Part shown: piece by piece, positions 1,089 to 38,735 of the stretch
How the letters are laid out: every line of letters starts with the position of its first letter
Numbering within the stretch: the stretch's first letter is position 1
IMG/VR virus record: IMGVR_UViG_3300042561_000572
Location: 30,156 to 94,155 of that record
DNA from: a virus
Reading direction: 5' to 3' (one strand)
Length of the DNA stretch: 64,000 bases
Notes under the pieces: model-generated
Seen by the model: only the letters and a program-made list of their open reading frames with translations
Told to the model about the DNA's origin: nothing
The model's database searches: none
Translations under genes and position numbers: made by a program

Positions 1089-4000
1089 TATCTCCTGAAA
1101 CTAAATAAGTTTCACTTCTACTATCACTACTTAAGTTTTCAAACTCAACATCTGTTGCCCAAACACCAACTACAACTGGTGGTACATCTAACTTATCAGG
1201 CACATCTATAAAGTCACTGGACATTGGATCTATTTCAGCTTCACCTCTAGCAGCTATAGCATCAGATAAGTTATCTTGCATTTGAGCCAACTTATTATTT
1301 AAATTATTATCTCCTTGGTTGAAGTTGCTTTTTAATAAACCAGCACTTTGTTGAATACTACTATCAAGCATATTCATAGCTAAAGCACCAACAAATGATC
1401 CAATAATAGCACTAACACCACTCTCTGCTATTGGCACATTATGTCTAAACAAAGGAGCAACAACATTTCTATTAAACAAGTCTGTTAACTTAGGAGTAAC
1501 ATAAGTACCAACTAGACTAAGTGAAGCTTCAGTTGATGCAGCTTTAGCTAAGTTAGTGGCCCAATCTTCATCAGGATTTCTATAAGCTTTACTTCTAAAG
1601 AGAGCACCAGCAGCATTAGCAGCACCTTTACCATGTGGCATGTTATAACCCATTAAACTTAAAGTACCACCAATAACACCTGCTGCATCCATACCAGCTT
1701 GATCATTAGAAGTACCATATATAGCACCACCAATCATACTAAGTAAAGCAGGACCAACTATATTAAATATACCATCAGCAGCTTTAACTTTTAACTCTTG
1801 TCTAGTAGTACCATCATTACCTCTAGCAACATGTTCAGGTTTAAAGTAATCTTTACCCTCCTTACTTAAAGTACCTAACAATAAGCCATTTTCAGCTAAC
1901 AATTCATCTGCTAATGCTTTAGCCTCTGCTTCATTTTTATTTATATTTTTATGCTGACCTACAATCTGAGCATGTATCTTATTATAAGTAACATCACTTA
2001 TTTCACCAGCTTGATTCATAGCAGCAGCAACTTCACTAATAGCTTGTAATTTAAAGCCTTGTGATGTTTTCTTACTTTGTCTATTAATCAAATCACTAAC
2101 TAATTCATTCTTTCTTTCAACCTTACCATCAATGGTTACTTCATGTTGTATTTCAACATGTTTAAGATGCTTATACATTTCTGCCATTTCTTTAGCATTC
2201 TCCTCATCACCACTAAAGTTAGACATCATTTGTCCCATAGCATCAGCATTAGTCAATTTAGGATCATTAACAGCTTTAAACAGTCTGCCCATAACAGAAG
2301 CACCTTCCATGCTAAGTTTACCTTGAGCCATTAACCTATAAGCAGCATTAAACAAATCACCACCTAATAAGCTAGTACCAACCTCTCTAACACTAGAACT
2401 TGTAATGTTTCTTTGCATGTCCTTACTAGCTTTATTTAGATGAACAAATCTATCTAAACCACTACCATAATCACCCATAAATGTCTTAGTTTGAGTGATA
2501 CTAGCATGATGACTAAGTACTAATAGAGAAGCAGTTGATAAGCCACCACTACTTTGTCTAACCTCATTAAGTTTAGCCATATTATCATCAGTCATAGCCA
2601 TTCCCATATGTTCATAAAGCATAGTACCAAAAGCACCATTAGAGTTAGTAATCATCTCTGCTGAGAACCTGTTAACTTGTTCTACTACAGCCTTATCTCT
2701 ATGTTGTTCTGATACATAACCAACACTATAACCACTGGCTCTTGTAGAAAATCCAACTCCTCTACTATTAATACCATCTATAGCATTATATAAACCTTCA
2801 ACTGCTTTAACAGCATCTGCTTTATTCCCCATTGCTAGCTCAGCAAGAGTTAAACTAACACCTTTACTATCACTACCCTTACCTAAAAAGCCATGTAATC
2901 CTTCACTAATAGTCTTTTCCAAAGCTCTATTACTACTAGCTTTATCATCAATCTTTAACTTACCATCCTTACCAATTTCTAATGAACCAAAGTTCTTTTC
3001 AAAGTTAAACATAGTAGTAATACTTCTAAGACTACTACTAACTTTAAACTTAATTAAAGAATCTTCATTTACATCAGACCCCATTAAAGCCATTCCAATA
3101 TCTCTTTGATCTCCAGTTATGTTATAGTCTCCAATGCTGCCATATCTACCTTCTCCATCTTTCCTTTCACCAGTAGAACCAGCAGCATGAATCATCTTAT
3201 TTAAATCCATTAGACCCTTCATACCAGCACCAGGACCAATTTTAGAAGCCATATCATTAACTAAACTTTGTCTTTTACTCTCATCAGCAGTAGTATATTC
3301 TTCTGACATCTTAATAAGTTCAGCCATAACAGAACTAGAATCACCCTTTAGTTTTATACTATCTCTAAGCATCTGTTGAACTGCTTTATTCCAACCTTGC
3401 AATTGTTGTGCTTTATCATATGAAGCTTGTAAGTTAGCCATAAATCTAGTGCCTTCATCTGATGGCATAACAACAGAGTTACTAGCATTATTAACTGGCC
3501 CATGTTGTCCAGTCATTCTGTTCATCTTCTCAGCAATCTGTGGACTATCACCTTCTAATATGTGATACAAACTAACAATAGGAGAATCAGCAACAAAAGT
3601 GCCAAGTAAAGTGTTATAAGTCTTACCTAACACATCACTACCAGCCTCACCTAATGTTTTAGTTAATACATCATATGTTGATTCACCCATACCAATACCT
3701 AAGCCAGCATTAATCTTACTGTATAAAACATTACTAGCTTTACTAGTTGCATCTAACTTACTAAATAGAGTTGTAAAATAAGCCTCTTTATTAACCTCAC
3801 CTTCAAAGTTATGTAAAGTATTACTGCTTTGTTTTAACTCATCCCAAGTAAGTCTCATACTGTTTGTTAAAGCTTCTTGTAACTCTTGTTGCATATCAGT
3901 ATCTTGCAGTTGAGTTGAGTTTAAAGTCATACCAATAGCAGTAAAGAACTGATTCTTATCAGAACCTGTTTCTATGCTTTTTATCATATCATCTAAAGTA

Positions 4001-7000
4001 TTCTTATCAAAGGTTAAACCAACAGAATGTTTACTGCCCAAAGAAGCATTTAACAAGTCCTCAACTCTAGTATTCATTTCACTATTAACACCTTGCATAC
4101 CACCATATAAGCCTTTACCTTGATCTAACATAGCAGCCATAGAACTAACATTAATAGTACCCTGACTTCTAAAACCACCTTCATTACTACCTCTAAAGAA
4201 TCTACTATCAATACCCATATAAGAGGCCACATCTTTTGCCATCTTACTTTGTTTATCAGGAGCATTCATATCCTTTTGCAATGACTTTAAAGCCATAGCA
4301 TCTTCAAATAATTTAGCTTCTTCATTGGCTAATGTCTTCTCTAATTTACTAAGAGCTTCTGTGTCTGATATAGGACCAACAAAAGCTTTCATTGAACTAA
4401 TTTCTTTCTTTTTATGTTCAATTACAAATCTTCTATCATCAATTGTATTAATCTTTTCAGTAACCTTATGTAGCAACGTCATATAGTTATCACCATCAAA
4501 GTCACCTAAGTTACTAGTTAAGAATGACAAACCACTAAAGATTGAAATACTCTTACTTCTATCAACATCAAACCTAACAATATTGTCATCTATTGCTAAG
4601 TTATCAATCATTTTATTGAATTGATCAACACCTCTAATAGCCATTAAAGTAGCAAGATGAGATTCAGTTGAACCATATGGTGCTGATCTCCAGCTTTGAT
4701 TTTGCATGTTATCAAGTTCACTCATACTATTATGAATGTAGCCTAATTCTTGTAATGAATAGTGTAAGAACTTAGTACTTAAAGTGCCTCCTTGATCCTT
4801 ATAAGCAGCCACTTGTTCTTTAATGTTAGTCATATCATTAATCATATAACCAACACTCTTTCTATTAGCAGCTACTATAAAGTGTTCTTGTTCTGACTTA
4901 GCATTCTTAGTAGAAGTAGGAGCAAAGCCCTCCATAAAGTTCTCTAAGTTCTTTATTCTATTGTCAATGTATTCAAGTGTAATCTGTCTAGCAGCTTCAA
5001 AGTTACCACCTGTTTTTGGATCAGCAGTGTCATTAATTAGATCTGTAATACTTTGATGAGTTTGCTTATACACAGTATGTTTACCTCTCATAGCACCCTC
5101 TAATTCCTTGCTATAATGATTAACAAGATCAAGGCCCATGCTATATCTATTCTTCATAGTACTATTATGAATAAAGTCTCTAATCTCATGATTCTTACCA
5201 AGATATATAGCATCTTGGTAACCTCTTTCAGACATCCAATCATTAACAGTACCTATTAAACCTTTATATTCTTCTCTCTTCTTAGGATTAAGACTGTTTT
5301 CAGCTAACTTTGTATCAGCTTTCAACTTAGCAAATTGCAGATTAGCTAATACATAACTAGCAACATATGCCTTATCATAAGCACCAGTTACATCTAAGTT
5401 TTTCTTAACAGTATTAAATGAATTTTGAGCCTTTTCAACAGCAGCATCTAAATCATTTATATCAGTAGTCTTACCAGTTTGTACTTGATTAAGTAAATTA
5501 TGAGCACCACCAATAACTTCAACACCATTCTGCAATTTTAATGCTGCCATAGTTGAAATACCTCTAACAAGCATTTGCTTTTGATAATCTAATACAGTAC
5601 CTAATGACTGATTAAAATCTTGTAGTTGTTTATTACTTTGATAATTCTTAAACTTAGTAGACATCTCACTACCAAGTGTTGTATATGTTAAATGTGCAGC
5701 AGCAGTAACCTCAAATAGTTTCTTTCTAAGACTAGCAATACCTTCAGGTGCTCCATACTTCTCATTAACAAATTGGGGCATAACATTCATGTTAGCAGCT
5801 AAACTTAAGTTAGGAATACCAGTACTAACATAACCTTCAAACTCAGTACCATGACCTGCAACTGCTTTTTGCATTAAAGTATCAGAACTAGCTTCTGATA
5901 TAGCTTGTAATAACTCATCACCAAGATAACCTAATCTAGCAATCATATCAGTCTCTTCAGGGCTTAAATTAACATTGAAGGTGGCACTATTCTTTTGTGC
6001 TGCTCTAGCTTTAGCAACTTTAATCATTACATCATTTTCAGCAGTACCTGGTACAAAATAACTTTGCATATTTAATGTTTTACCAACAATATCACTAACA
6101 AAGTCACCAAAAGATGAACCAACTTGATTTAACAAATCAGCACCAGGCATAAATATATATGTGTTTTGAGTATTACTAAATACAGTATTAACATCTCCAG
6201 TCATTTGATCTACAAGTGGTCCACCAACTACTTTTGGCATTAATATGTTATAAGTCCTATTACCAGTATCTTGTAACATTTGTAGCTTAGGTTGAGTTAT
6301 ATCTGTACCCATACCTTTACTTTGTTCTAAGTTATAAGTTATGGCAGACTTTCTTAAAGCTTCAATTATATGTTGACCAACACGCCTTAATTGACCAGCA
6401 TAATCAGTAAGCTTAGCAGTAGGATCACTATTATGTTTATCCCTATTTAACCCATCAACATATGTTGCTTCAGCAAGAGTTAAATCACCGTTATTATAGT
6501 AATCTTCTACTTTACTAACATCAAAGTTCTTTTTAATAGATGGTTTATAAATAGTTCTATATTCTTTTATTAACTCACTACTATTCTCATTAGCATTATA
6601 ATAAACTCCTAAGAAGTCCCTACCAAAGAAGCCACTCATAGTTACTGGATCTAATGCTTGAATTGCTTGTATACTCTTTAAATACTCTGCACTATCAGCC
6701 ATACCAACACTAATAAGTCCAATCTCTTGAGCAGCAACAACAGTACCTAACACATACGCTAAGTTACCCTTATTACCAGTTCTAGTAAACTGTTTAGATT
6801 GAGCTTCTAATGGTGCTAACAAGTGTTGCATTTCAGTCTTAGCTCTTAAGTTCTTACCAAGAGGATCTTTACTAGCAGAAGGTGATATAGACAATGATAA
6901 TTGCACTGCATAGTTTTGTTGCAAGTATATACCCATTTGATTAGCAAGTTGTTCTTTCTCCTCATTAGTCATATTAAAAGCATTATCACTACCACCTAAA

Positions 7001-10000
7001 GCTGCTGCAATTTCCAACAATGGATCATTTAAAACTACACCACTGTATGCATCATAATTGCCTGTAACTGCATTAGGTGTAGCAGCTCTTGTTAAAGCTC
7101 CTATTTCTGATAGTGGACTTGTCTTTAAAGGACCAATAAAAGAATCATCATTAAACTTACCAGTAGTACCATCATTTTGTCTTACCTTCATTTTAAGCAT
7201 CCAATCAGTAACCATACTAATGTCACCTCTTTGATTCTTAAGCTGACCAAACATATCAATAGCAGTTAACATAGCAGAGACACCTCTAGTATATAAGTCA
7301 CTACTATTAATTACATAACCATCACCACTTCTACTACCAACAGTGTTAACATAACCTTGTAATAAGCCTGTTAAATCTCCACTATCAGTTAATATGGCAT
7401 CTCTAATAGATCCTACAAGTTCCTTATTATTCATAATGAATTGTGGAATACTACCAAAGATATTATCCTTTGATCTAGTAGCTTTACCAGTAAGTACATT
7501 CTGCATTTCAGCCATTCTAATAAAGGTGCCAAACTCACCTTTAATAGCAGCCTTCTTATAAGCTTTAACATATTGATCATTCAACATTAAAGCATCACCT
7601 GGTTTATTCCTTTCATATGAACCATCAGCTATAATGTCTAAACCAAACTGACTAATCAAAGCTGCTGCTAACATTCTATTAGTCTGTTTAACAAGAGTAT
7701 TAGCAAGTTTAGTTCTAACTCCATCAGGACCAGTTACATCTTTAGTAAACAACATAGAAGCATGATCCATAAAGAAGCCACTCTTTAAGTTGTTAGGATT
7801 AATCAAGCCATAAACATCAGATACTTGATTCTTTAAAATACTAGCACTACTTATACCTGCTTCAACTGTTTTAATAGCCCCCATATCATCTTTAAAAGTA
7901 GATTCATAGCCTAATGATTTCATAAAACTACTAAATACACCCTCAAATTGACTACCTTTTAAAGCAGCACCAACACCTTTAAATAAAAGACCAGCAGCAG
8001 TACCTTCATGTCTTCTACCAGAACCAGGTTGTAATATTGGCAAAGCACTTACTTGGTATTTTATTTCATTAGTGCCTGGACTACCACCTTCAACTCTACC
8101 AGCAGTAAGAATAAGATGAACTGAATCTTCACCAGGTCTATTACTAATTGACTTTTGTTTAACAGATGCTACAGGTTTACCAAATAAACTGAAGTTTTCA
8201 ATCTGTCCAATTAAATAATCAGCACTACCAGTACCTCCAACATAAGTTACATTATCTCCACCATCTGCTCTAATTTGAACAACCTTATTAACACTTCTAT
8301 CATATACAAAAGTATCACCTTCATTAATAACAAGGCCATTCTTTTGCAACATATCACCACTAAAAGTTACTTCACCAACATGTGTTCTAGCATCTAACAT
8401 AGAAGCCTTAATACCAGTATTAGTAACAGTTGGCATACCAGCATAATGTTGTGTTCTAAATTTAGGATTAGTATAGAAGTGATCACTATAACCACCATTA
8501 AGTTGTAATAATACAAACTGTTGTTTATCTCTTCTACCTCCAACAACTGAACCAACACTATTAGCAACACTACTATAACTAATCATCTTCATTCTAAACA
8601 TGTTGTTAAGTATTTGATTAGTATCTTCTCTCTCTGTCTCACTTAAGTTTAAATCTTTAAACTTATCAAATAATTCTTTTCTCTGCGCTAATACAAAGTT
8701 ATAAGCACTTTCATTTAGCACTGTTCTAACATCAGTATCAAACATAGAACCTAAGTTTACTTCTTCTGCTGTTAGATAATTATGTATAAACTTCTTAGCT
8801 TTATCATCAGTTAATAAAGATGTTAATTGAGCTATATTATCTGCAATGCCCTTTCTTTGACCTGCATTATATTCTTTTAAACTACCCTTTTCTAATATAG
8901 TCTTAGAAGCCTCTTCAGATACTTCATACATTAATCTACTACCAAGAGCATTCTTAATTCTTTGGTTAATTTGTGCTGGTTTACTAGGATCAAGATTAAA
9001 TAACATACCTCTTTGATTACCTTTAACATTTAACAATGTCATAATCTCATCAACTTCACTGTCTTTAAAGTCACCACTATTAACAAGTTTATCCTTACTA
9101 ATAAGAACACCAATACCAGTTCCTTCAAGGATATCAATACTATTCCTATCAGTTGGAAACTTATTTCTAACACCAAATGATTCTAGTTGATAACCTTTCT
9201 TATTCTGAGTAGAAACACCTTCAGCAACACCACCTAAATAAAACCTTTCATTACCTTCATAATCAGTACCAAAACCACTATAAACACTAACATCTCTAGC
9301 AAATGTTCTAGCATATTGTAATGTTTGTAGAAGAGGGTTCTTACTAACATCAGCAATGTTTAGTAAACTCATAGCTCTTTCATTACCAGCATCTAAACCA
9401 TAATTAATATACTTACTAGCAGGAACACCTGCCGCATAACTAATAGCCTGGTGAGCTTGTAAATAAGGATCAAATATAGTTTTAGATAACTCTGTCATCT
9501 GACTATTTAAATCTCTTTCAGCATTATATTTACTATTAACTCTAAGAACATCTAAGGTTAAATCTTGATAACCTTCTTGACCTAATAGTTGACCAATAGC
9601 ATGTATAGCTGTAAAAACATCATCACCACTTTTAGCATTTCTAATATTTTGTATTTGATCTGTTAACTTAATGCCAAACTTTGTACCTTCAACATTAACA
9701 TTAACATTTAACCTGTTATAAACATCTACACCAGCTAACTGTCTAGTAGTATCTAAATAACTAATACCTTCAGCATTAAATCTACTTTCCAATGCATTAG
9801 CAAGGTCTTTATATCCACCCCTATCAAACAAGTTATTAGATCTACCCCTATCAAACAAGTTATTAGAATAAGCTAATCCATCTGTATTTATGCCAACCTT
9901 ATTATCAGCTAACATGTATCTAGTATCACCCATCAAAGAAATAGCAAAGTCTAATGCTAAACCTCTTTTAGTATCAGCATCAACACCTATTAACTTACTA

Positions 10001-13000
10001 GCAGGATTACTAATAGCTTGTTTATAAGCCATCTCACCAATCATAGTAGCAAAGATACTAGTAGTATTATCAATACTAGACATCTCAGCAGATTGACCAT
10101 GTTCTAAAACACCAGGTCTATCCCCAAACTTCCAACTAATCTTTCCACCAGTATTATTAGTAAAGTTACTGTTATATATTAACTTACCTTCCTTTTGAAA
10201 GAACACAGGACCAGGTTGATTAGCAGTACCTTGTAACATACCAAGAGTATAAGTAAGCCTACTAGTATTAGTGTTTAAACCTAATAACTTACCAGGCATA
10301 ATAGCAACTTCTAACATAAGAGGAGTGCCAAATCTATCATACTTTCTAGTAATAGACATAGCATCCCCTAACCCTTTACTCATCTCCCTTAAAGTACTTT
10401 CTAACTTTAAAAGATCACCAGTATTAGATTGTCTAGCCCAGTATGGTAAACCTTCAATGGAGGGTAACAAACCATTATCTAACCTATTACCATAGTTAAG
10501 TTGAGCATAAGACATAGTTACAGCCTTATTATTATCTTTTAACTCATACATTTCTTCTTCTGCTAATAAAGAATATTCATTACTAAAGCCTAAGTTTAAA
10601 GCCTCAATGTTATCTCTAAAGTCTTGGTCATAGCCAGTATTACTTTCCTTAGCAGCATCAATGAATAACTTTCTATTAACATAAACAGCACCCATTTCAT
10701 CACTAACATATGGATCATTACCTCCAACACCAAGATACTTATTATCAGGTCTAATATCAACACCTAATGAGTTCATACTAAAGTTAGAAGAGTTAGCAGC
10801 AGTACCAGCTATTTGCTGAGTATATTTAACATATGTACTACCATCTTTTCTTGTTGCTGATTCATATCTATAAGCACTAAAAGACTTACTATGTTGTCTA
10901 GGAACATCAGCACCAGCCATATTACCACTAGCAATAGCAAGCATTTGTAATGCAGTTAAGTTCTTACCATCAGTAATATCTAATTGAGCATTAATAAGTT
11001 CAACCTTTCTATTTAGTGATTGATTACTCTCTGTTACAGCATTAACAAAGCCACTAATAGAGCCACTAAATTCATTATGAAACCTAGCACCAAACCTATC
11101 ATTTAAATAATTCCAAGTAGGTTCTATGACCTGTTTAGTAAAGTTATTAGTATCAACTACAACCTTACTAATACCCATTGCTATCAAACTAAAGTTCTTT
11201 CTTTGTATGTCTCTATACAATTCATATCTAACATCTTGTCTTGATCTAAACTGACCACTTCCAAGAGTATTGGAACTAAATTTACCCATTTCACCAATCT
11301 CTTGACTGGTAGCATCATTAAATCTATTAGCTCTATTATTAGGATCACTACCATTAACATCTAAATGATTAACATGTAATAAGTATGCTTGATCAAGCAC
11401 CATAGTCATACCTAAATCACCAGTATATTTACCCTTTAATTCGTCTAAACTACTATTCATTTCTCTACCACTTTCAGTGTGTAAATAGTCAACAGTAGCC
11501 TTCAATGTATACATAATATCAGTTGCAAACTTAATATTAGATTGACTACTTATAGTTGTTATTTGTTGTTTTTGAGCAGCAACAACTTGTTCATACATAA
11601 GAGCAGATACAGTCTTCTTATATTTATTAACCTTATTATCATTTAACTTTTGAGGATCAAACTTACCTAATAACAAATTAAGTTGTGCTAACCCAGAGAA
11701 GTCTTTAAAAGATGTCCAATTATTTAATAGTTCTGGTAACCTGTTAATATATTCTTGTCTCTTTTTAATTAAATCCTTATTACTATGAAACATGCCTAAC
11801 ATTTCATAGTTGGAGCCAGCTTTAAATATAGAATCACCAACAGGACTAGTTAAGTTAATAGAGCCTAACACAGCAACCTGATCTGTTATATAAACCTTTC
11901 TATGATGAGCAGGGCCAGCAAGCTTAATGTTAAACACACCAGGAACCCCATCTTTACCATTAACAATCTCTTCTGCTTCTTGTCTAGTTTTTTTCTTGCT
12001 ATTAACAAGTTCATTGATAATAGTTTCTTTTAACTTCTCCATCTTTGCAACTTCAAGTATATTAGGCCCAAAGATAGCAGCACTAGTACCTTCATCACCT
12101 GGAATAGGAGAACCAACAATCATATTAACTTTAAAGCCATAGTTCTCATTACCTATGATTTCTCTATAGATCTTACTAACAACAACATCACTAATAGCTC
12201 TATTTTGATATTGGAAAGTATCAATTGTAATGCTTTCTTTAGCAGATTCAAACATAGAAACAAATGGTAATATACCAGGTCTAGTTTGATACTTAACATC
12301 ATCAATCACTTTAGCTGCTTTTTGTTTATAACTATTGTTAATACTAGTATCAATAGCTTTAATGTTTCTTCTATTTATACTAACACCACCCTTAGTTAAC
12401 TCATTAACATAAGACTTACTTCTAACAAAGTCTAAGTCAGTAATAGTCTTACCAGCTTTACTTCTACTACTATTAAAAGTACCTTCATTAATTGCTCTAA
12501 GCTCATCTGCTGAGTTACCATCAACAGGAACAAGACCACTACCAAATAGATCAGCATTAACTAATCTCTCTAATGTCTCTTGTCCTCTAGCTTCCATATC
12601 TCTAATATTAGAACTAGATTGAACACGACTAAAAGCATTAGCATACTGATAGCTTTGATCTAAGTAATAATTATCTTTAGCTTTAGTAGGATCTTCAATG
12701 TATAAACCTTTTTTAGCTAAAACATTACCAAATATATTTTCAAATACCACTTGACTAGCATAAGCTTTAGTCTCAGTAGGATCAATTCTATAAGCTTCAC
12801 CAACTAAGAACTTAAGACTCTTTCTACTATCTAATAAGCTATTAGAAACATTACTATCAAACTCAGTAAACAGTCTAGTAGTAACAGTTTGACTAAGACC
12901 TAATACAAACTTATTAGAGAATGCTTCTCTTTTACCAGTAGTAGTAACATGTTTAGGATCAAACATACCACCTGATATATCACTAGTCATACCAATAGCA

Positions 13001-13349: not shown

Positions 13350-13751
13350 ATGTCCACAGCATCAACAGTATTTGAAATTCCTCTTCCTTCTGGTAAAGTT
13401 ATCTCTTTTAGACTTCCTACATACAGAGATAGACAAGCAGCAGTTAAGAGATTTAGACAACAACAAAATGAAGTAGGTTGGTCAATTGAAGAGTTTTTAG
13501 CATTTGGTATGCTTGAATTTGTAGATGGACTGCCTTTGCAAGCTGGTCTTGACCCTATTGATCAAGTATCTGAATGGTCATTGAAAGATGTAAATATTTA
13601 TCTAGAAGTATTTATGCCCTTAGTATTTCCTGATGATGTTGCTAAGCAAAGAGCACAAGACATGGTTAAGGCACTTCTTGAGGGAAAGTCAGTAGTGAAA
13701 CAAGTGGCCTCACCTATTACTTCAGCCCCTACTACAGCTATAACCGCATAA
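13350..13751 (+). CDS. tail assembly chaperone (lambda gpG-like)
   Basis: FEIPLPSGKVISFRLPT N-terminus typical of tail/hub assembly chaperones; contains in-frame G GGA AAG slippery site. Confidence 0.75.
   Translation: MSTASTVFEIPLPSGKVISFRLPTYRDRQAAVKRFRQQQNEVGWSIEEFLAFGMLEFVDGLPLQAGLDPIDQVSEWSLKDVNIYLEVFMPLVFPDDVAKQRAQDMVKALLEGKSVVKQVASPITSAPTTAITA
13682..13688 (+). promoter_or_regulatory. programmed -1 ribosomal frameshift site GGGAAAG
   Basis: GAG GGA AAG in frame; the -1 frame is open from here into ORF 13769..14179; same heptamer as lambda G-T. Confidence 0.8.
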
Positions 13752-14188: not shown

Positions 14189-15658
14189 ATGGCAACAAAT
14201 AATACAAAAGCAACTACATCAACTAAGAAGGAGGAGACTAAACAAAAAGCATCATCTCCTCCTTCTAGTGGAGAAATAAACTTCTCTAAATACAAAACAA
14301 ATCCACCATTACAAGTGTTTGGAGATACTTCTAACAAAGTAAGACCAAACACTTACAAACAATTAGGTAGAGCCACCTCATTTGTAAGTAATGGTGATTC
14401 TTTGTATGTAAATACAGGGCCACATCAATATGCTTTAGCAACATGGGACTATGCTAGAAAGAATGAACCAATAATATCTGATGGTTTAGATAAGATAGTA
14501 TTATCAGTTTTGGCTAAGATAGGTTCCTATAATCATCCTAATCCAGACATAAGAAAGTTTATAAAAGCTAACTTAAAACATAAGATTAGACACTGGATTG
14601 AAAATATAACATATTCTATGTTGTGGTCAGGTAAGTCTGTATCAGAGATAATATGGGAAAAGAAGTGGGATGGTGACACCCCTCAGTTATGGGTAAAAGA
14701 TTTAATAAACTATCATACATCTCAAGTTATATTAAGATTAAATAACTATGGTACTTTAACACATGGAGAACAAGTGTTAAATAGCCAATTTAATACAGGT
14801 GTTTGGGTTCCTAGACCTATTTTAACTGAAGATAAAAAGATGTATAAAGTTGATAGAAACAACACAGGATCACATATAAGACTTGCTAAAGACAAGTTAA
14901 TTATAGCTACATATAAAGATGAAGGTAATAATCCTCATGGCACACCAGCTTTATATGCAGCTATTCAATGGTCTTTATACAAAGCAGCTTTTGTTGATAT
15001 GTATTCTATAGCATTAGACAGATATGGAACACCTTTAATGTATTTTATAGTGCCAGCCACACAAACAACTGAAGACATGGAAGAAGTTGATGGTACTATT
15101 AGAAAAAAGATGTTTAGAGAAGCATTACAAGATGAACTACAAGACTTAAGAAGTGGTTCTGTTTTAATACTTGAAAGACAAGGAAACAAAGATGCACCAG
15201 AACCAAAAGTAGAGTCATTAACAACTGGTAATAACTTTGGAGATTCATTTATAACAGCCATTGATAAGTGTGATCAAAACATGTTACATGCTATGGGAAT
15301 ACCTAACTTACTTATAAAGAATCAAGACTTAGGATTAGGTTCTGGTGGAACAACTGAAAAGCAAGTTGAAATGTTTGAAATGTCTATTGAACAGATAGCT
15401 ATAAAAGTAAGTGAAGTATTAATTGATCAACTTATAAAGACTTTAATAACTTATAACTTTTCACCAAAACTAGTAGATCATGCTGATAACTATGGAGAAT
15501 TTATAATCAAACCAATAAGATATGTTGATTATAAAGTAATGGCAGAAAGTGCAAAGATATTAACAGAAGCAGGAGTTATAGCACCATTAGTAAGTGAAAT
15601 GGATAGAAAATTTATTAGAAATCAACTAGGAATACCTAATGATCATGAGGATGTATAA
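14189..15658 (+). CDS. portal protein (DUF935/Mu gp29-like)
   Basis: 489 aa; GKSVSEIIW, GNNPHGTPAL, LDRYGTPL, FITAIDKCDQNMLHAM and LITYNF follow the DUF935 portal pattern. Confidence 0.8.
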   Translation: MATNNTKATTSTKKEETKQKASSPPSSGEINFSKYKTNPPLQVFGDTSNKVRPNTYKQLGRATSFVSNGDSLYVNTGPHQYALATWDYARKNEPIISDGLDKIVLSVLAKIGSYNHPNPDIRKFIKANLKHKIRHWIENITYSMLWSGKSVSEIIWEKKWDGDTPQLWVKDLINYHTSQVILRLNNYGTLTHGEQVLNSQFNTGVWVPRPILTEDKKMYKVDRNNTGSHIRLAKDKLIIATYKDEGNNPHGTPALYAAIQWSLYKAAFVDMYSIALDRYGTPLMYFIVPATQTTEDMEEVDGTIRKKMFREALQDELQDLRSGSVLILERQGNKDAPEPKVESLTTGNNFGDSFITAIDKCDQNMLHAMGIPNLLIKNQDLGLGSGGTTEKQVEMFEMSIEQIAIKVSEVLIDQLIKTLITYNFSPKLVDHADNYGEFIIKPIRYVDYKVMAESAKILTEAGVIAPLVSEMDRKFIRNQLGIPNDHEDV

Positions 15659-22443: not shown

Positions 22444-23301
22444 ATGAGAAACAAATTATCTGGTATATATTCTTTTACAAATAAAACAACTGGTAAAAGA
22501 TATATTGGACAAACAGTATATTTAAATGGTAGAAAAGGAGATCATTTATTAAATCTTAGAAGGAATCAACATGATAATGATTATCTTCAAAAAGCTTTTA
22601 ATAAATATGGTGAAAAAGACTTTATATTTGAAGTGTTAGAAGTGGTGCCAAAGTTAGAAGATGGTACTAATGATAAAGTTAAATTAACTGAAAGAGAGCA
22701 GTACTGGATGGATTTTTATAAGTCTTATGATAGAGATTATGGTTATAATATTAATCCTTCAGCAAGTATGAATCCAATGCAGGGTAAAACACATACCCCA
22801 GAAGCTAGAAAGAAGATTAGTGAAGCAGCTTATAATAGACCTCCTAGAAAAGTAATTTTACCTACATATATTCCTAATCCTGATATTAAAGATAGTATAG
22901 ACAGTAAATTTGAATATACTGTAGAACATATTAATGGTAATACATATATTTTAGATGATAATAGTTTTATAGATTTTTGCAGACAATTACATTTAGATGA
23001 TGCTAGATTATTTAGATGTTTATACTTTAAAGAGTTTTATTATGGATTAAAAGGCTCTATAAAAGTATTAAATAAGTGGGGAGAATATCATATACATCAG
23101 TGTAATACTCAACAGAAAAACGCCGTAGTATATAGATATTATTTAAAAGATGAAACTGGAACAGAACATATAACTGATAATCTAAATAATTTTTGTAGGA
23201 TTAATAGATTAAGCAGAACACATATGGGAAATGTAGTAAATAAAAACAAATACTATAAAGGATGGACTGGTTATAAAGTTTCTCTAAAAGATATAAAATA
23301 A
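22444..23301 (+). mobile_element. free-standing GIY-YIG homing endonuclease with NUMOD3-like motif
   Basis: SGIYSFTNKTTGKRYIGQT, LTEREQYW, GYN and NPMQGKTHTPEARKKISEA. Confidence 0.9.
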
Positions 23302-32984: not shown

Positions 32985-35849
32985 ATGTCTAAATTTTACT
33001 CAGATAAAGCGCCAACACCAGTCTTTGCAGTTACATTTGTAAGTAATAGAGATGGTATTATACCTAAAGAAAAAGTACAAACTAGTAGCAAAAGTACTAC
33101 TCCTCAACAAAATGAAGAAGATATTACTAATCCAAACTTTAAATCTAGTGATTATAAAGAGGGAATAGAAGCAGGAGAAAAAGATTTATTAAATAAGATT
33201 GCTTCAATTAAAAAGACTCAAAGGAATAATCCAACACCAGATGAAAAGAAAAGATATGATGAAGCTTTAACTGATTATAGAAAAGCTTTAAGAGAGTTTA
33301 GAGAAAAGAATATGCCAACCTTTTATGGACCTTCTAATTCTTCTACTCCAACTATACCTACCAAAGATAGTGAATACTTAATTTATTCTAATTTACAAAT
33401 ACAAAAAACAGATGATCCAACTGACTTATCACAACAATCTAATTGGTATTTAAGAGAAGCTGAAGTTGAATTAACTAGAGATTGGCCCATTCAAAAGGCC
33501 AAGTTAATTGTAACTTGTAAGCTATTAGATAATGGCTCTATACCACCTTTAGTTGAAGTTGAGAATGGTTTTGTATATGAGAAAAATAATCAGACTCAAG
33601 TGTTTACACCTGTCACTGGAGGGCGCTTCTTATCAGCAGATGATGAAGTGAGAATATATGCTGGTTATAAGAATGATCAATGTATTAGTATGAATGATTT
33701 AGATAAATATCCATTTGATTTTACTAACTTAGAAGCTACAAAACCAATACCACCAATAGTTGAAGCTCAAGTAAAGTTCCTAGAAAAGCAAGTAGTTGCT
33801 ATACAAAATGCTATAGATGCTATAAACAATCCTCTAACAGATCCAACTCTTTATGCAAACATAGGTATTGCTTTACTTCCATTAGGTTTATTACTCTTGC
33901 CAGCAGCAGGACCAGGAGGAGCAGTAGCTACTATTGCTCCAGCTAGTAAAGCTTTAAGTGTTTCAGGTGCTGCTATATCTACAACAGGAACCACAGGAGC
34001 AGCCACAACAGCGTTAGGTTTTCCCATTGGAACAGCAGCAACTTCTACTGCAACAGGAGCTACAAGTACAGCATTAAGTACACAAGTACTTCCTAGAGTA
34101 GCAGCATCTACTATTTCTACGGCTACTAATGCTGCTGCTAGACTACCTACAACAACTGCTGGTTTAGATGCTTTAGCAACTGCTGCTTATAATAAAGCTA
34201 TTGCATCTGGATTAGGTATAACTGCTGCTAGTGTTGTTGCTATTAATACTGTATTAGCAGGATCTGCAAGTGCAGAAGATATAGCTAAACTCTATCCTGA
34301 TAAGATAACTACTAACTATTTAGAAGGTAGAATATATCTAAATGATAATAAAGCTTTAATTGATTCATTAAAAGGAGAAATTACTGCTACTAATAACTTA
34401 ATACAAGTACTACTAAGAAAAGCTGGAGTTGAAACTAAAACATACACAGCAAATCCTAATAAAATAGCACCTATATTCTGGGGCTTTATAGATTCAGTTG
34501 ACTTTATATCTAACTCTAATGCTGGTGTTCAAATTATATACAACTTAAGAGATAGAAGTAGAATATTAGCAGATACTAAACTTGTAACATTACCCTTCCT
34601 AGGAACAGATGCTAATAATAAAAACACATTTGAAGGGTTAAAACATAAGACAGTTGAATCTGTATATAGAGCTACTAATGGTGGTATTTACTTAGATAAT
34701 AGTTATCAAACAGCTTCATCTTTAGCTTGGAGAAGTGGCTTTAATAAAGGGGAAGTTATAAGTTTATATGAAGATATAGATAAGAAGATAATAGATACAA
34801 AGAGTGCATTAGCTAAGGAAAGATTAAAGTATACAGCAGCAATAGAAGATCCTGCTAGATGGGTTATTGCTAATGCATTCTTATCATCTAGTAATATATT
34901 AAATAAGGCAGATTATAATAACCTTGATCCTTTATTTCATATATGGACCTTGCAAGGACCGCTAGTATCAGGTAGTGGTAATAACACTATGCAGATCATA
35001 AACAAGTCACCATTTGAGATATTAAACTATTTAGCAATGACTGAAGTAATGCCTATTGATATATTTACATCACATATCAATGGACACTTTATGTTTGCAC
35101 CAAGAATATTAGATACAACTGGTCTTTATGATGAACAAAGGGGTAATAGATTATACTACTTCTTTGATTGCTTTGATCAATTACCAAATCAAAGAAATTT
35201 AATAAAAGATATAAGAGTACAAACAAGTACAGTTGGTGTTTATAACAGATTTACAGTATTAACAGCAGACTTTGGTAGTTCAACTAATGCTTCATTATCT
35301 GGTCTAACATCTATTGTTGATATAGCATCAGCTAATACTAAAAATAGAAAGGTACCAATTAAACAACATGTAATTGTAGATCCTAAGATAAAAGCTAGTG
35401 AAGGTAACAAAGAAGGAGCAGCACAAGCATTAGCACTTACAACAGCCTCTACAATGGCTAGGGATCACACTATGATTATATTTAAGATTATAGGTGATTC
35501 ATCATTTTATCCAGGAGAAGCTGTAAGAATATTTAATACTGTCCTTCATAGTAAAGGTATATTTACTTTTAATGCTACCTCTACATCATCTGCTGTCTTT
35601 TTAAAGTCCCTATATGATGAAGTTCAAAAGCTATTAAATAGTGCTGTTAAACAAGGAGGTGATAAGAATAAAGTAGTAGATTTAAGTGCTGTAATTGATA
35701 GTATGAGAAGAGTAGCAGGAGCACCTTCAGATGACTTAAATGATGCATTACCCATGTATAAAGTAAGAGGCATAACACATTCATTAAAAGCTAATGGTAA
35801 TGATGCTGGATACACTACAAAGATAGTTGCTGTTGCTGATATTTTATAA
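32985..35849 (+). CDS. baseplate hub protein (T4 gp27/P2 gpD/VgrG-N-like) with large insertion
   Basis: DEVRIYAGY, PIFWGFIDSV, LRDRSRIL, IIGDSSFYPGEAVRI and YKVRGITHSL...GYTTKI. Confidence 0.7.
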   Translation: MSKFYSDKAPTPVFAVTFVSNRDGIIPKEKVQTSSKSTTPQQNEEDITNPNFKSSDYKEGIEAGEKDLLNKIASIKKTQRNNPTPDEKKRYDEALTDYRKALREFREKNMPTFYGPSNSSTPTIPTKDSEYLIYSNLQIQKTDDPTDLSQQSNWYLREAEVELTRDWPIQKAKLIVTCKLLDNGSIPPLVEVENGFVYEKNNQTQVFTPVTGGRFLSADDEVRIYAGYKNDQCISMNDLDKYPFDFTNLEATKPIPPIVEAQVKFLEKQVVAIQNAIDAINNPLTDPTLYANIGIALLPLGLLLLPAAGPGGAVATIAPASKALSVSGAAISTTGTTGAATTALGFPIGTAATSTATGATSTALSTQVLPRVAASTISTATNAAARLPTTTAGLDALATAAYNKAIASGLGITAASVVAINTVLAGSASAEDIAKLYPDKITTNYLEGRIYLNDNKALIDSLKGEITATNNLIQVLLRKAGVETKTYTANPNKIAPIFWGFIDSVDFISNSNAGVQIIYNLRDRSRILADTKLVTLPFLGTDANNKNTFEGLKHKTVESVYRATNGGIYLDNSYQTASSLAWRSGFNKGEVISLYEDIDKKIIDTKSALAKERLKYTAAIEDPARWVIANAFLSSSNILNKADYNNLDPLFHIWTLQGPLVSGSGNNTMQIINKSPFEILNYLAMTEVMPIDIFTSHINGHFMFAPRILDTTGLYDEQRGNRLYYFFDCFDQLPNQRNLIKDIRVQTSTVGVYNRFTVLTADFGSSTNASLSGLTSIVDIASANTKNRKVPIKQHVIVDPKIKASEGNKEGAAQALALTTASTMARDHTMIIFKIIGDSSFYPGEAVRIFNTVLHSKGIFTFNATSTSSAVFLKSLYDEVQKLLNSAVKQGGDKNKVVDLSAVIDSMRRVAGAPSDDLNDALPMYKVRGITHSLKANGNDAGYTTKIVAVADIL

Positions 35850-37574: not shown

Positions 37575-38735
37575 ATGGCAAGAGATAGAGCCTACTATGA
37601 ACAATTACTAACTAATAGTAACGTTGTTGCTTATTTAAATGCTATTAGCAGCATTGAAGCACAGACTTATTACACATTAAATGGAAATACAATATATGTA
37701 CCAACAGGGCCAGAACATCCAGATGTAATAGTACCCCCTGGAACTTCAGCAGCATTTGGTAGATATCAATTTATGCCTGGAACTTGGAATGAAATACAAG
37801 CTGGACTAGGGCCTCTAGATATAAGAAAACCTAGAGATCAAGATATAGCAGCACTATATAGGATGGACACTTTAAGAGGAACACTTGATAATGTTATAGC
37901 TGGTAATTGTATAGCAACTTTAAATAGTAATGCTGGTGAATGGGCAGCATTACCTAAAGCTGATAGTTCTTTTGCATATCCTAATCAAGGAGGACCTCTT
38001 GATGCAGTAGGATTTTGTAAGTTAGTTGATAGTTTAAAAGGTACAACATTACCAAAGGGACCTCTTGTAAATGATAATGTACCTACTGGAACAAGTCCTT
38101 CTAATAACCCTAATAACAATACATTTACCTTTGGTAATACTAACTTTGCAGACATAACATGTCCTCCTATAAAAGAAGAAGATTTATATAGAGCTAACTA
38201 TCAAATAACTAATCCAGGATGTAAGATATCTAGTCCTGTACAACCAATAACAGGATCAAATACTAATAGTGGAACAGTTAATAATGTTAGAGGCACTAAT
38301 AAAGGTGTTGGTTTTTCTGTTAATACACAAGGTTTTGGACAATGTTCAAGTTTAAGAAGTCCTTGTAATTTAAGTAGTGGTGAAGTAGTATTTACATCCG
38401 GTTATGGTTGGAGATGGGGAAGAATGCATAATGGTATTGATTTAGCAGGTCCTATTGGAACTCCCATATATGCTGCTAGTAATGGTAAAGTTATAGATGC
38501 AGCATACCAAGATGGAGGCTATGGTAATAGAGTTGAAATAGTAAGTCCAGAAGGTATTAGAACAACATATAGTCACTTAAATGCTATTAAATGTTCTGTG
38601 GATCAGCAAGTAACAGTAGGACAACAAATAGGTGATATGGGTAGTACTGGCTTTTCAACTGGACCTCATTTACACTTTGAAGTTGATACTGGTAGTGGTT
38701 ATATAGACCCAGAAGACTGTATAAGATTTAGATAA
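37575..38735 (+). CDS. lambda-type lysozyme/transglycosylase fused to M23 peptidase
   Basis: AISSIE...AFGRYQF...QDIAA...EWAALP; GYGWRWGRMHNGIDLA, YSHL and STGPHLHFEV. Confidence 0.9.
   Translation: MARDRAYYEQLLTNSNVVAYLNAISSIEAQTYYTLNGNTIYVPTGPEHPDVIVPPGTSAAFGRYQFMPGTWNEIQAGLGPLDIRKPRDQDIAALYRMDTLRGTLDNVIAGNCIATLNSNAGEWAALPKADSSFAYPNQGGPLDAVGFCKLVDSLKGTTLPKGPLVNDNVPTGTSPSNNPNNNTFTFGNTNFADITCPPIKEEDLYRANYQITNPGCKISSPVQPITGSNTNSGTVNNVRGTNKGVGFSVNTQGFGQCSSLRSPCNLSSGEVVFTSGYGWRWGRMHNGIDLAGPIGTPIYAASNGKVIDAAYQDGGYGNRVEIVSPEGIRTTYSHLNAIKCSVDQQVTVGQQIGDMGSTGFSTGPHLHFEVDTGSGYIDPEDCIRFR

Follow-up and report, generated by a model that had tools for sequence, protein, structure and literature searches.

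A giant protein of a Microcystis-phage-like myovirus combines an RNA polymerase beta-like fold with an invariant DFDGD motif

The Microcystis-phage-like myovirus analyzed here encodes, adjoining its portal gene, a protein of 4,035 aa, and the phage group concerned probably carries its own RNA polymerase (RNAP), because this protein has a module with a predicted RNAP beta-like fold and, after it, a loop of catalytic type whose DFDGD is invariant. The window, being the whole stretch of 64,000 nucleotides that was analyzed, corresponds to positions 30,156 to 94,155 of IMG/VR record IMGVR_UViG_3300042561_000572, and nucleotide coordinates are given with respect to it (Table 1). The reading that we favour, and consider likely, is that of a multi-domain protein which would be packaged in the head and ejected, and which would combine a PLD-type domain, a single-chain beta/beta-prime two-barrel RNAP and a membrane-like tail.

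The giant ORF matches PHROG 31006 (E 2.7e-48), and significant full-length similarity together with a shared architecture places its product in the family of Ma-LMM01 gp080, a family of giant phage proteins (605-5,372 aa) that falls into no fewer than 34 diverged clusters (these being defined at 50% identity, with 34 cluster representatives retrieved at E <= 1e-10). Use of the ORF in tblastn produced matches in 10 Microcystis, Microcoleus and cyanophage records; megablast of phage records gave no match, and when shorter or stand-alone versions of the protein were sought, nothing but pieces of close relatives turned up, in which Pfam recognised no domain. Collinear conserved blocks across the family correspond to aa 250-1850, 2090-2470 and 2820-3340. 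In an alignment of 37 family sequences (~16-23% identical to the 4,035-aa protein, apart from two nearer relatives with 53% and 60% identity), the columns that are invariant or at least 90% conserved include K1735 and K1800 in the beta-like motifs, G2450, R2832, P2835, G2893, D2894, D2896, G2897 and D2898 in the beta-prime-like motifs, and L3185, G3186, K3187, Y3189, N3190, Q3270, R3273, D3274 and K3277 in two downstream blocks. One further column conserved in at least 90%, K1410, is located outside the motifs listed in a sequence-only reading of the window, which had proposed a single-chain two-barrel RNAP hidden within this protein; all of the motifs listed there are present in the ORF, at positions correct to within a few bases.

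The beta-like half was assessed by means of an AF2 model of aa 1230-2290 (pLDDT 65.5, pTM 0.66, core 70-90). The best 50 Foldseek matches of this model in the PDB are all RNAP second-largest subunits (beta/Rpb2), with 4g7h_C as best match (E 3.5e-4, prob 0.97, 414 columns) and 8xmc_B at prob 1.00, and a Foldseek-independent fold search of 48,161 chains placed RNAP beta/Rpb2 at ranks 1-6. In BFVD the top match is the separately predicted segment of Ma-LMM01 gp080 (E 1.9e-25), below which poxvirus and giant-virus RNAP subunits are found, while the beta flap domain is a weak structural match. The predicted structure confirms an RNAP beta/Rpb2 fold for this module, as had been claimed, and includes the elements of a beta-type module of the two-barrel superfamily (DPBB-B with hybrid-binding, fork and flap elements). 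As modelled, the module resembles a multisubunit-type beta and not an RNAP of the crAss or QDE-1 kind: among the comparisons proposed earlier, the one with RNAP beta gave matches, and the chains of QDE-1, phi14:2 gp66 and P23-45 gp96, to which the module may nonetheless be related, were absent among the matches listed for this model.

The beta-like motifs occur within the module in the expected order. The GGYSD motif has the family consensus QLxGxYSD..NP, and residues R1724, L1733 and K1735 of GRRHEG...FKGV are invariant or nearly so. The PLGK...TEMQH motif was absent from the motif list of the sequence-only reading. Across insertion 1 blastp coverage drops from ~29 to ~13 of 36 relatives, and much of this insertion has low pLDDT.

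Table 1. Features of the giant ORF and its genomic surroundings (window coordinates).
Feature	aa	nt	Strand	Basis or remark
Giant ORF P0001	4,035 aa	1075..13182	(-)	Zero cysteine; ortholog-level relative of Ma-LMM01 gp080 (PHROG 31006)
N-terminal PLD/HKD domain; HxK motifs H427/K429 and H764/K766	about 300-830	10693..12285	(-)	Pfam PLDc_2 and family conservation
RNAP beta-like module	about 1294-2135	6778..9303	(-)	AF2 model, Foldseek PDB, VIA-align, BFVD
QLNGGYSDHF	1560-1569	8476-8505	(-)	
GGYSD core	1563-1567	8482..8496	(-)	Candidate counterpart of beta GYNFED
Beta-flap-like beta-rich insert	1582-1716	8035..8439	(-)	Between two halves of beta-like barrel
LQPGSGRRH	1717-1725	8008-8034	(-)	
GRRHEG...FKGV	1722-1737	7972..8019	(-)	Candidate counterpart of beta GRHGNKGV
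FKGV	1734-1737	7972-7983	(-)	
DVYGLINPNN	1789-1798	7789-7818	(-)	
NPNNLKS	1795-1801	7780..7800	(-)	Candidate counterpart of beta NPLGVPSR; K1800 kept in at least 90%
Insertion 1, variable, mostly helical	about 1850-2090	6913..7635	(-)	blastp coverage and pLDDT
PLGK...TEMQH	2107-2120	6823..6864	(-)	Candidate counterpart of beta PLGGK...GEME; consensus SKxPxGxK..ExQH
Conserved block ending GxKxxxxGxxxT (aa 2443-2454)	2290-2475	5758..6315	(-)	Candidate first beta-prime-like barrel strand; cf. GKRVDYSGRSVI
GHGTEFEGYVSTGIPNLSL	2443-2461	5800-5856	(-)	
Insertion 2, hypervariable, helical	2476-2815	4738..5757	(-)	Alignment coverage and spacing
Beta-prime-like catalytic block, RSxP then GD[FYW]DGD	2822-2915	4438..4719	(-)	Alignment; candidate by sequence
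RSAP	2832-2835	4678-4689	(-)	
DFDGD	2894-2898	4489-4503	(-)	
TLGxAGxxxLGKTYNT	3176-3195	3598..3657	(-)	Invariant; bridge-helix candidate
VLGKTYN, within the above	3184-3190	3613-3633	(-)	
QQxLRDSIKxK	3269-3279	3346..3378	(-)	Invariant; bridge-helix/trigger-loop candidate
QMLRDSIKLKG	3270-3280	3343-3375	(-)	
C-terminal region, two hydrophobic glycine-rich membrane-segment-like stretches	3803-3823, 3916-3943	1354..1776	(-)	Kyte-Doolittle scan
Portal gene, divergent neighbour of giant gene		14189..15658	(+)	PHROG 113, E 2.7e-30
Separate ORF at tape-measure position	954 aa	32985-35849		
M23 peptidase gene		37575-38735		

The model does not confirm the fold of the beta-prime-like half, the argument for which is carried by GD[FYW]DGD, RSxP, the order of the motifs and the two downstream blocks. 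GD[FYW]DGD, a DxDxD-type metal loop, shows no exception among the family members that extend over this region (R, G and DxDGD being invariant in alignment A7), and because of this invariance the objection that DFDGD might not be conserved in homologs, raised with the original proposal, falls away. DFDGD is the sole DxDxD in the 4,035-aa protein, the chance expectation from its composition being 0.0035, and family-wide it is separated from RSxP by a gap of 57-75 residues. Upstream, G2450 of GxKxxxxGxxxT is at least 90% conserved, and its distance to R2832 ranges across the family from 230 to 1,498 aa (median 375), with only ~6 of 36 relatives aligning within insertion 2; the helical insertion described in the sequence-only reading is borne out as a lineage-variable, mostly helical segment. 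Downstream, LGKTYN and QxLRDxIKxK are located 291 and 378 residues past DFDGD, the corresponding distances in E. coli beta-prime being 327 and 473; both blocks are candidates for the bridge helix and trigger loop expected beyond the second barrel (DPBB-A). An AF2 model of aa 2280-3345 reached a mean pLDDT of 53.5 and a pTM of 0.37, with the DFDGD region below 50 and represented by low-confidence helices, and Foldseek and VIA-wide searches with this poor model returned helical look-alikes only. With a model this poor, the two barrels and the splitting of the catalytic barrel by an insertion remain putative; the proposed single-chain two-barrel RNAP thus stands for its beta-like half, by fold, and its beta-prime barrel is not seen. 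The DFDGD loop would be located in this second, beta-prime-type barrel and bind the catalytic Mg2+.

The order and spacing of the motifs parallel those of E. coli beta (809, 1069, 1099, 1258, 1271) and beta-prime (344, 424, 460), and every full-length member of the family has the key residues in that order. At the level of sequence, the putative RNAP-type signature residues all follow the layout of a beta-beta' fusion, and in a family that is both large and old they rank as the best-conserved positions. Counting against an RNAP, no sequence method ties either half to RNAPs. Pfam found nothing in the DFDGD half of 17 family members and PLDc_2 only in the whole 4,035-aa protein; PF00623 had no match in the 94-kb contig, though all 14 control genomes matched; and comparison with the PDB produced nothing for the protein (phmmer) and only coiled-coil noise for the family profile. 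Against 31-sequence proteobacterial beta/beta-prime alignments hhalign aligned only 9 columns, beta-prime 460-468 at DFDGD (E 0.004, prob 8%), and six family sub-profiles reached a prob of at most 0.7% against phi14:2 gp66. A narrow profile of the beta-like block found nothing in the PDB, despite the confirmed fold of this block, and the negative sequence searches are uninformative because the fold-confirmed block fails them too. When the PDB is searched with a 92-position DFDGD-block profile, light chains of antibodies that carry a DFDGD loop score best, so that the pentapeptide alone is not diagnostic. ESM Atlas returned nothing for a fragment of the protein, and in the 94-kb contig neither a second DxDxD-type ORF nor other RNAP subunit-like genes were seen.

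Considering these searches, the protein might be a structural or ejection protein which has kept an RNAP-derived beta-like fold and lost polymerisation, with DFDGD fulfilling another metal role or a structural one. We regard this as unlikely: it would fit a second barrel that is not seen in the model, a polymerase that is recognised by no profile method, and ESM Atlas language-model features that lean weakly tape-measure-like (0.86, below the tool's 0.9 threshold), but an inactive relic would not have preserved GDxDGD and RSxP, the beta-like barrel's basic residues and another two invariant blocks in relatives that share only ~20% identity overall.

The genomic context suggests delivery with the virion, as do the absence of cysteine and the C-terminal hydrophobic segments. 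Adjacency to the portal gene is kept in 15 related loci, down to ~23% identity (tblastn synteny). Cysteines are absent from 49 of 49 family proteins, as compared to a Cys content of 0.76% for the contig's remaining ORFs, the probability of no Cys over 4,035 residues being ~4e-14; for a translocated protein, such an absence, family-wide and at lengths of 3,000-5,000 residues, is an uncommon trait and one that lends itself to testing. Portal linkage, lack of cysteine and membrane-like tail, which fit a delivered virion protein, argue against a two-barrel polymerase with another job, i.e. one that is RNA-dependent, primer-making (like QDE-1) or non-virion and made after infection. Some RNA-dependent polymerases and DNA polymerase D are also two-barrel enzymes (PMC10770324), but by structure the module is matched best by the beta subunits of DNA-dependent multisubunit RNAPs, plus the weak flap-domain match, and we consider such a role quite improbable. 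Very improbable is a tape measure protein fused to a polymerase, for which P23-45 gp96 (a TMP with N-terminal DFDGD RNAP and membrane domains; PMC10770324) offers a precedent and the hydrophobic C-terminal segments an argument: the giant gene was rejected as tape measure since it adjoins the portal gene, outside the tail module, a separate 954-aa ORF occupies the canonical tape-measure position (after sheath, tube-like gene and small ORF), and the M23 peptidase that many tape measures contain is encoded by a different gene.

According to the favoured reading of a head-packaged protein with a single-chain RNAP, the giant protein would be packaged in the head, be ejected with the DNA and enter the cell together with the genome. 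Its N-terminal part would be a nuclease-like domain of phospholipase D type with two HKD motifs: aa 309-481 are matched by Pfam PLDc_2 (E 1.8e-5, 25 bits, slightly below the 27-bit cut-off), both HxK motifs are kept family-wide, and, in the N-terminal domain only, the two HxK(x)4D...GSxN motifs per chain of phospholipase D (HKD) are present. A cellular-type RNAP (beta fused to beta-prime) would extend across ~aa 1300-3340, broken by two lineage-variable helical insertions and holding its Mg2+ by the DFDGD loop, and a tail with membrane-segment-like stretches would form the C-terminal end. The first phage genes would then be transcribed without host RNAP. More tentatively, and as a possibility that we hold with some doubt, the cysteine-free ejected protein may be a self-contained infection starter, in which a membrane-active C-terminus would help to build the entry conduit, the complete beta-beta'-type RNAP with flap would transcribe, and perhaps pull in, the genome, and the PLD nuclease would attack host nucleic acid. 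If so, a widespread aquatic myovirus clade, including Microcystis bloom phages, would be independent of host RNAP at the start of infection, by means of an RNAP of the multisubunit lineage with flap, from which no single-chain virion polymerase has so far been reported.

To our knowledge, experiments have demonstrated phage-carried two-barrel RNAPs in only a handful of widely differing cases (crAss-like phages, P23-45, jumbo phages phiKZ/AR9). If our reading is true, a large contractile-tailed phage clade would be added (at least 34 clusters at 50% identity, including Ma-LMM01 and MaMV, which serve as models of Microcystis phages that control blooms), and RNAP evolution would gain a single chain of the beta-beta' lineage fused to a PLD nuclease. 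Ma-LMM01 gp080 (YP_851094.1; PHROG 31006; UniProt A0A7J4), a member of the same family, is likewise a giant ORF beside head genes with PLD domain and DFDGD (tblastn 22.7% identity over 64% of aa 1400-3300), but measures 3,562 aa versus 4,035 aa, is only ~23% identical and carries no annotation beyond 'hypothetical' or 'PLD phosphodiesterase domain-containing protein'. No paper describing this giant-protein family was found. Papers on the Ma-LMM01 phage group state that RNAP is not encoded (PMC9927357, PMC5780444), Ma-LMM01/MaMV lacking any RNA polymerase and depending on the host enzyme according to the published genome papers. Counting against our reading, a transcriptomic study of Ma-LMM01 reported that the gene classes it looked at are preceded by sigma-70-like sequences, and it reported no motif specific to the phage (PMC5780444). 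Early gene control in gp080-type phages would, if our reading is true, have to be reinterpreted, with Ma-LMM01 as a cultivable test system.

Compared to multisubunit beta/beta-prime (rpoB/rpoC; phiKZ and AR9 non-virion RNAPs, PDB 7OGP, 7S00), the putative enzyme is a single chain that forms part of a 4,035-aa protein, with two large variable insertions, no detectable sequence homology and, because of the lack of cysteines, no zinc sites. The crAss-like phi14:2 gp66 (PDB 6VR4) is similar in being a single-chain two-barrel RNAP of large size (2,180 aa) that is packaged in the virion, has one DxDxD and is encoded within the structural module, but is a podovirus protein without PLD domain. With hhalign no similarity to it was seen, even at the metal loop, a negative that says little because the fold-confirmed beta-like block also goes unrecognised in such comparisons. 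The virion RNAP of coliphage N4 has a T7-like single-subunit fold, unrelated to the two-barrel enzymes. It is a functional analogue, described as giant (~3,500 aa), capsid-packed, ejected and transcribing early genes (PMC13434306, PMC12633501). P23-45 gp96, a tape-measure-fused virion RNAP for which transcription of the pre-early genes has been demonstrated (Chaban et al. 2024, PMC10770324), is alike in being a giant virion-type protein with membrane domains and a cryptic DFDGD two-barrel RNAP missed by sequence searches. That protein is a siphovirus tape measure whose RNAP is N-terminal, ~800 aa, flat, clamp-less and of the single-subunit clade, whereas the protein presented here is portal-linked, belongs to a myovirus, and carries an N-terminal PLD domain and a much larger multisubunit-type beta-like module.

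The source record of the window, an IMG/VR virus of 94,155 bp which CheckV estimates to be 56% complete, has as its largest ORF a minus-strand gene specifying 4,035 residues (the giant protein), for which a sequence-only reading had proposed a hidden single-chain two-barrel RNA polymerase. All peptides quoted in that reading are present in this ORF, their nucleotide coordinates being off by a few bases at most. The giant protein was assigned to PHROG 31006 (E 2.7e-48), a family of unknown function which includes gp080 of Microcystis phage Ma-LMM01 (3,562 aa, annotated as 'hypothetical protein'); UniProt names gp080 a PLD-domain protein, nothing more, and literature searches found no published description of the family as a polymerase. 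Relatives retrieved by tblastn were confined to Microcystis, Microcoleus and cyanophage records (23-25% identity), and aa 2150-3349, searched exhaustively by HMMER, yielded 34 cluster representatives at E <= 1e-10, almost all of 3,000-5,400 aa. Pairwise comparison identified aa ~250-1850, 2090-2470 and 2820-3340 as common to the family, and ~1850-2090 and 2470-2820 as lineage-variable.

Structure prediction, based on shallow family alignments of 17-21 sequences, confirmed a fold-level match between the beta-like half of the giant protein and the second-largest subunit of RNA polymerase. The AlphaFold2 model of aa 1230-2290 (mean pLDDT 65.5, pTM 0.66; most of aa ~1350-1990 at 70-90) was compared to the PDB by means of Foldseek, and the best 50 matches were all second-largest subunits, encompassing bacterial beta, archaeal/eukaryotic Rpb2-type chains and poxvirus subunits, with 4g7h_C as the top match (E 3.5e-4, probability 0.97, 414 columns). 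In the viral structure library BFVD, the first match was an independently predicted segment of Ma-LMM01 gp080 (E 1.9e-25), followed by RNA polymerase subunits of poxvirus and giant viruses.

The proposed polymerase was thereby upheld by fold for its beta-like half, and not for its beta-prime-like half, the model of which (aa 2280-3345) was poor, with a mean pLDDT of 53.5 and a pTM of 0.37; aa 2818-2908, modelled as helices, had pLDDT values below 50. With this model as query, Foldseek and VIA retrieved nothing but helical look-alikes, Pfam gave no match for 17 family members, and PDB profile searches with family sequences produced nothing relevant. When hhalign was applied, just 9 columns aligned to beta-prime, exactly at the catalytic loop (probability 8%), and no match was obtained to gp66, the virion RNA polymerase of crAss-like phage phi14:2. 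A profile covering 92 positions of the DFDGD block had as its best PDB matches antibody light chains which happen to carry DFDGD, so that this pentapeptide alone proves nothing. Since the fold-confirmed beta-like block also fails the hhalign and PDB profile tests, these negative sequence searches carry little weight, in agreement with the published remark that, outside the DxDxD region, two-barrel RNA polymerase families have no significant similarity in sequence (PMC10770324). A second, beta-prime-type barrel is suggested as follows: a module of the beta type requires a partner with DxDxD; the sole DxDxD of the giant protein is invariant and located downstream at the expected place; and it is preceded by RxxP at a constrained distance. 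Based on the protein's own composition, DFDGD would be expected 0.0035 times.

Positions of the features discussed, with polymerase motifs paired to their E. coli counterparts (L015, locus of a distant relative; L002, Ma-LMM01; L108, region of the record preceding the window; other nucleotide positions refer to the window)
Feature	Nucleotides	Giant protein (aa)	E. coli motif and position
Giant ORF (minus strand)	13182 to 1075		
PLD-like domain (Pfam)		309-481	
Two HKD-type motifs	10693-12285	~300-830 (H427/K429, H764/K766)	
GGYSD		1563	beta GYNFED, 809
RRHEG..FKG		1723-1736	beta RHGNKG, 1069
NPNNLKS		1795	beta NPLGVPSR, 1099
PLGK		2107	beta PLGGK, 1258
EMQH		2117	beta GEME, 1271
GHGTEFEGY		2443	beta-prime GKRVDYSGR, 344
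RSAP		2832	beta-prime NRAP, 424
DFDGD	4489-4503	2894-2898	beta-prime DFDGD, 460
133-aa ORF	13350-13751		
GIY-YIG/HNH-type homing endonuclease gene	22444-23301		
954-aa ORF	32985-35849		
386-aa protein	37575-38735		
In-frame TGA, IMGVR_UViG_3300040801_003693	L015:6791-6793		
Ma-LMM01 gp083	L002:6310-7569		
1,546-aa ORF	L108:14200-18840		

The motifs are collinear with those of E. coli beta followed by beta-prime (Table), and a flap-like insert sits between GGYSD and RRHEG, which is the place of the flap in beta. The PLGK...EMQH pair, kept across the family as SKxPxGxK..ExQH, represents an additional beta-type signature absent from the sequence-only reading. The distance from EMQH to GHGTEFEGY is 326 residues, as compared to ~415 for the corresponding span (GEME to GKRVDYSGR) in a head-to-tail beta-beta' fusion, and RSxP precedes DFDGD by a narrow range of 57-75 residues across the family. 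The spacer between G2450 and R2832 varies from 230 to 1,498 residues, which fits a site tolerant of insertions.

In an alignment of 37 sequences with a mean column identity of 16%, G3181, L3185, G3186, K3187, Y3189, N3190, Q3270, R3273, D3274 and K3277 were invariant, and the columns at least 90% conserved included K1410, L1733, K1735, K1800, G2450, R2832, P2835, G2893, D2894, D2896, G2897 and D2898. As these columns, with the sole exception of K1410, fall within the motifs originally singled out, the latter constitute the most constrained positions of the family. The same pattern was repeated in alignments from 14 IMG/VR loci, where GD[FYW]DGD is universal, and the key residues occur in identical order in each full-length member. 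In one distant relative, the giant gene is divided into parts of 1,471 and 2,231 aa by a single in-frame TGA. This codon lies in the flap-like region, after the GxYSD motif and before GRRxEG, and may reflect a genuine split, read-through or an error in sequencing.

Pfam recognized only a PLD-like domain in the giant protein (E 1.8e-5, slightly below the curated cut-off). Its two HKD-type motifs, conserved family-wide and each followed by a GSxN-like turn, would provide a complete PLD-type active site in a single chain, upstream of the polymerase-like region.

Next to the giant gene, in divergent orientation, lies the portal gene (PHROG 113, E 2.7e-30), which is followed by a head protease-like gene and those for the major head protein, sheath, tube-like protein and baseplate; a homing endonuclease gene lies immediately after the major head protein gene. 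Portal adjacency is kept in 15 related loci, including Ma-LMM01, at identities down to ~23%. Ma-LMM01 gp083, annotated as 'tail protein', is 40% identical over 429 residues to the portal protein of the window and is probably a portal. The 133-aa ORF (PHROG 32670) is likewise found between giant and portal genes in 10 related loci, at 30-100% identity. A tape-measure role for the giant protein is unlikely, since the place where a tape-measure gene would canonically be expected, behind the genes for the sheath, a tube-like protein and a 152-aa product, is taken by a separate ORF of 954 aa. The latter matched no Pfam family, and its sole PHROG match was 34291, of unknown function. The 386-aa protein combines an M23-type metallopeptidase domain at its C-terminus with a lysozyme-like match at its N-terminus, and probably serves as a tail-associated hydrolase of the cell wall.

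No cysteine is present in any of the 49 family proteins retrieved (~180,000 residues). Given the 0.76% cysteine in the other ORFs of the contig, the chance of finding none in 4,035 residues is ~4e-14; a 1,552-residue open frame, corresponding to the 1,546-aa ORF, contains 14. The latter ORF, without Pfam match or DxDxD motif, belongs to a putative early/replication region where the majority of ORFs are of unknown function. The family-wide lack of cysteine may represent an adaptation to passage via the tail and cell envelope. Near its C-terminus, the giant protein carries two glycine-rich hydrophobic segments.

Building on what was shown, namely the fold of the beta-like half, the conserved motifs and the genomic setting, we infer a mechanism in which the giant protein would be packaged in the head close to the portal and would be ejected before or together with the DNA, its C-terminal segments would engage the membrane, its two-HKD domain would act on nucleic acid or lipid during entry, and its central beta-beta'-type polymerase would begin to transcribe the incoming genome independently of the host's RNA polymerase. 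Such a host-independent start is in tension with Ma-LMM01 transcriptomics, where sigma-70-like sequences, and no phage-specific motif, were found upstream of the gene classes examined (PMC5780444). According to genome papers on this phage group, RNA polymerase is not among its encoded proteins (PMC9927357). The closest precedents for the giant protein are gp96, the tape-measure-fused RNA polymerase of Thermus phage P23-45, and crAss-like gp66. In the giant protein, the modelled beta-like module resembles the multisubunit lineage and gives a weak match to the flap domain; a PLD domain is fused to it, and its gene is linked to the portal gene of a myovirus.
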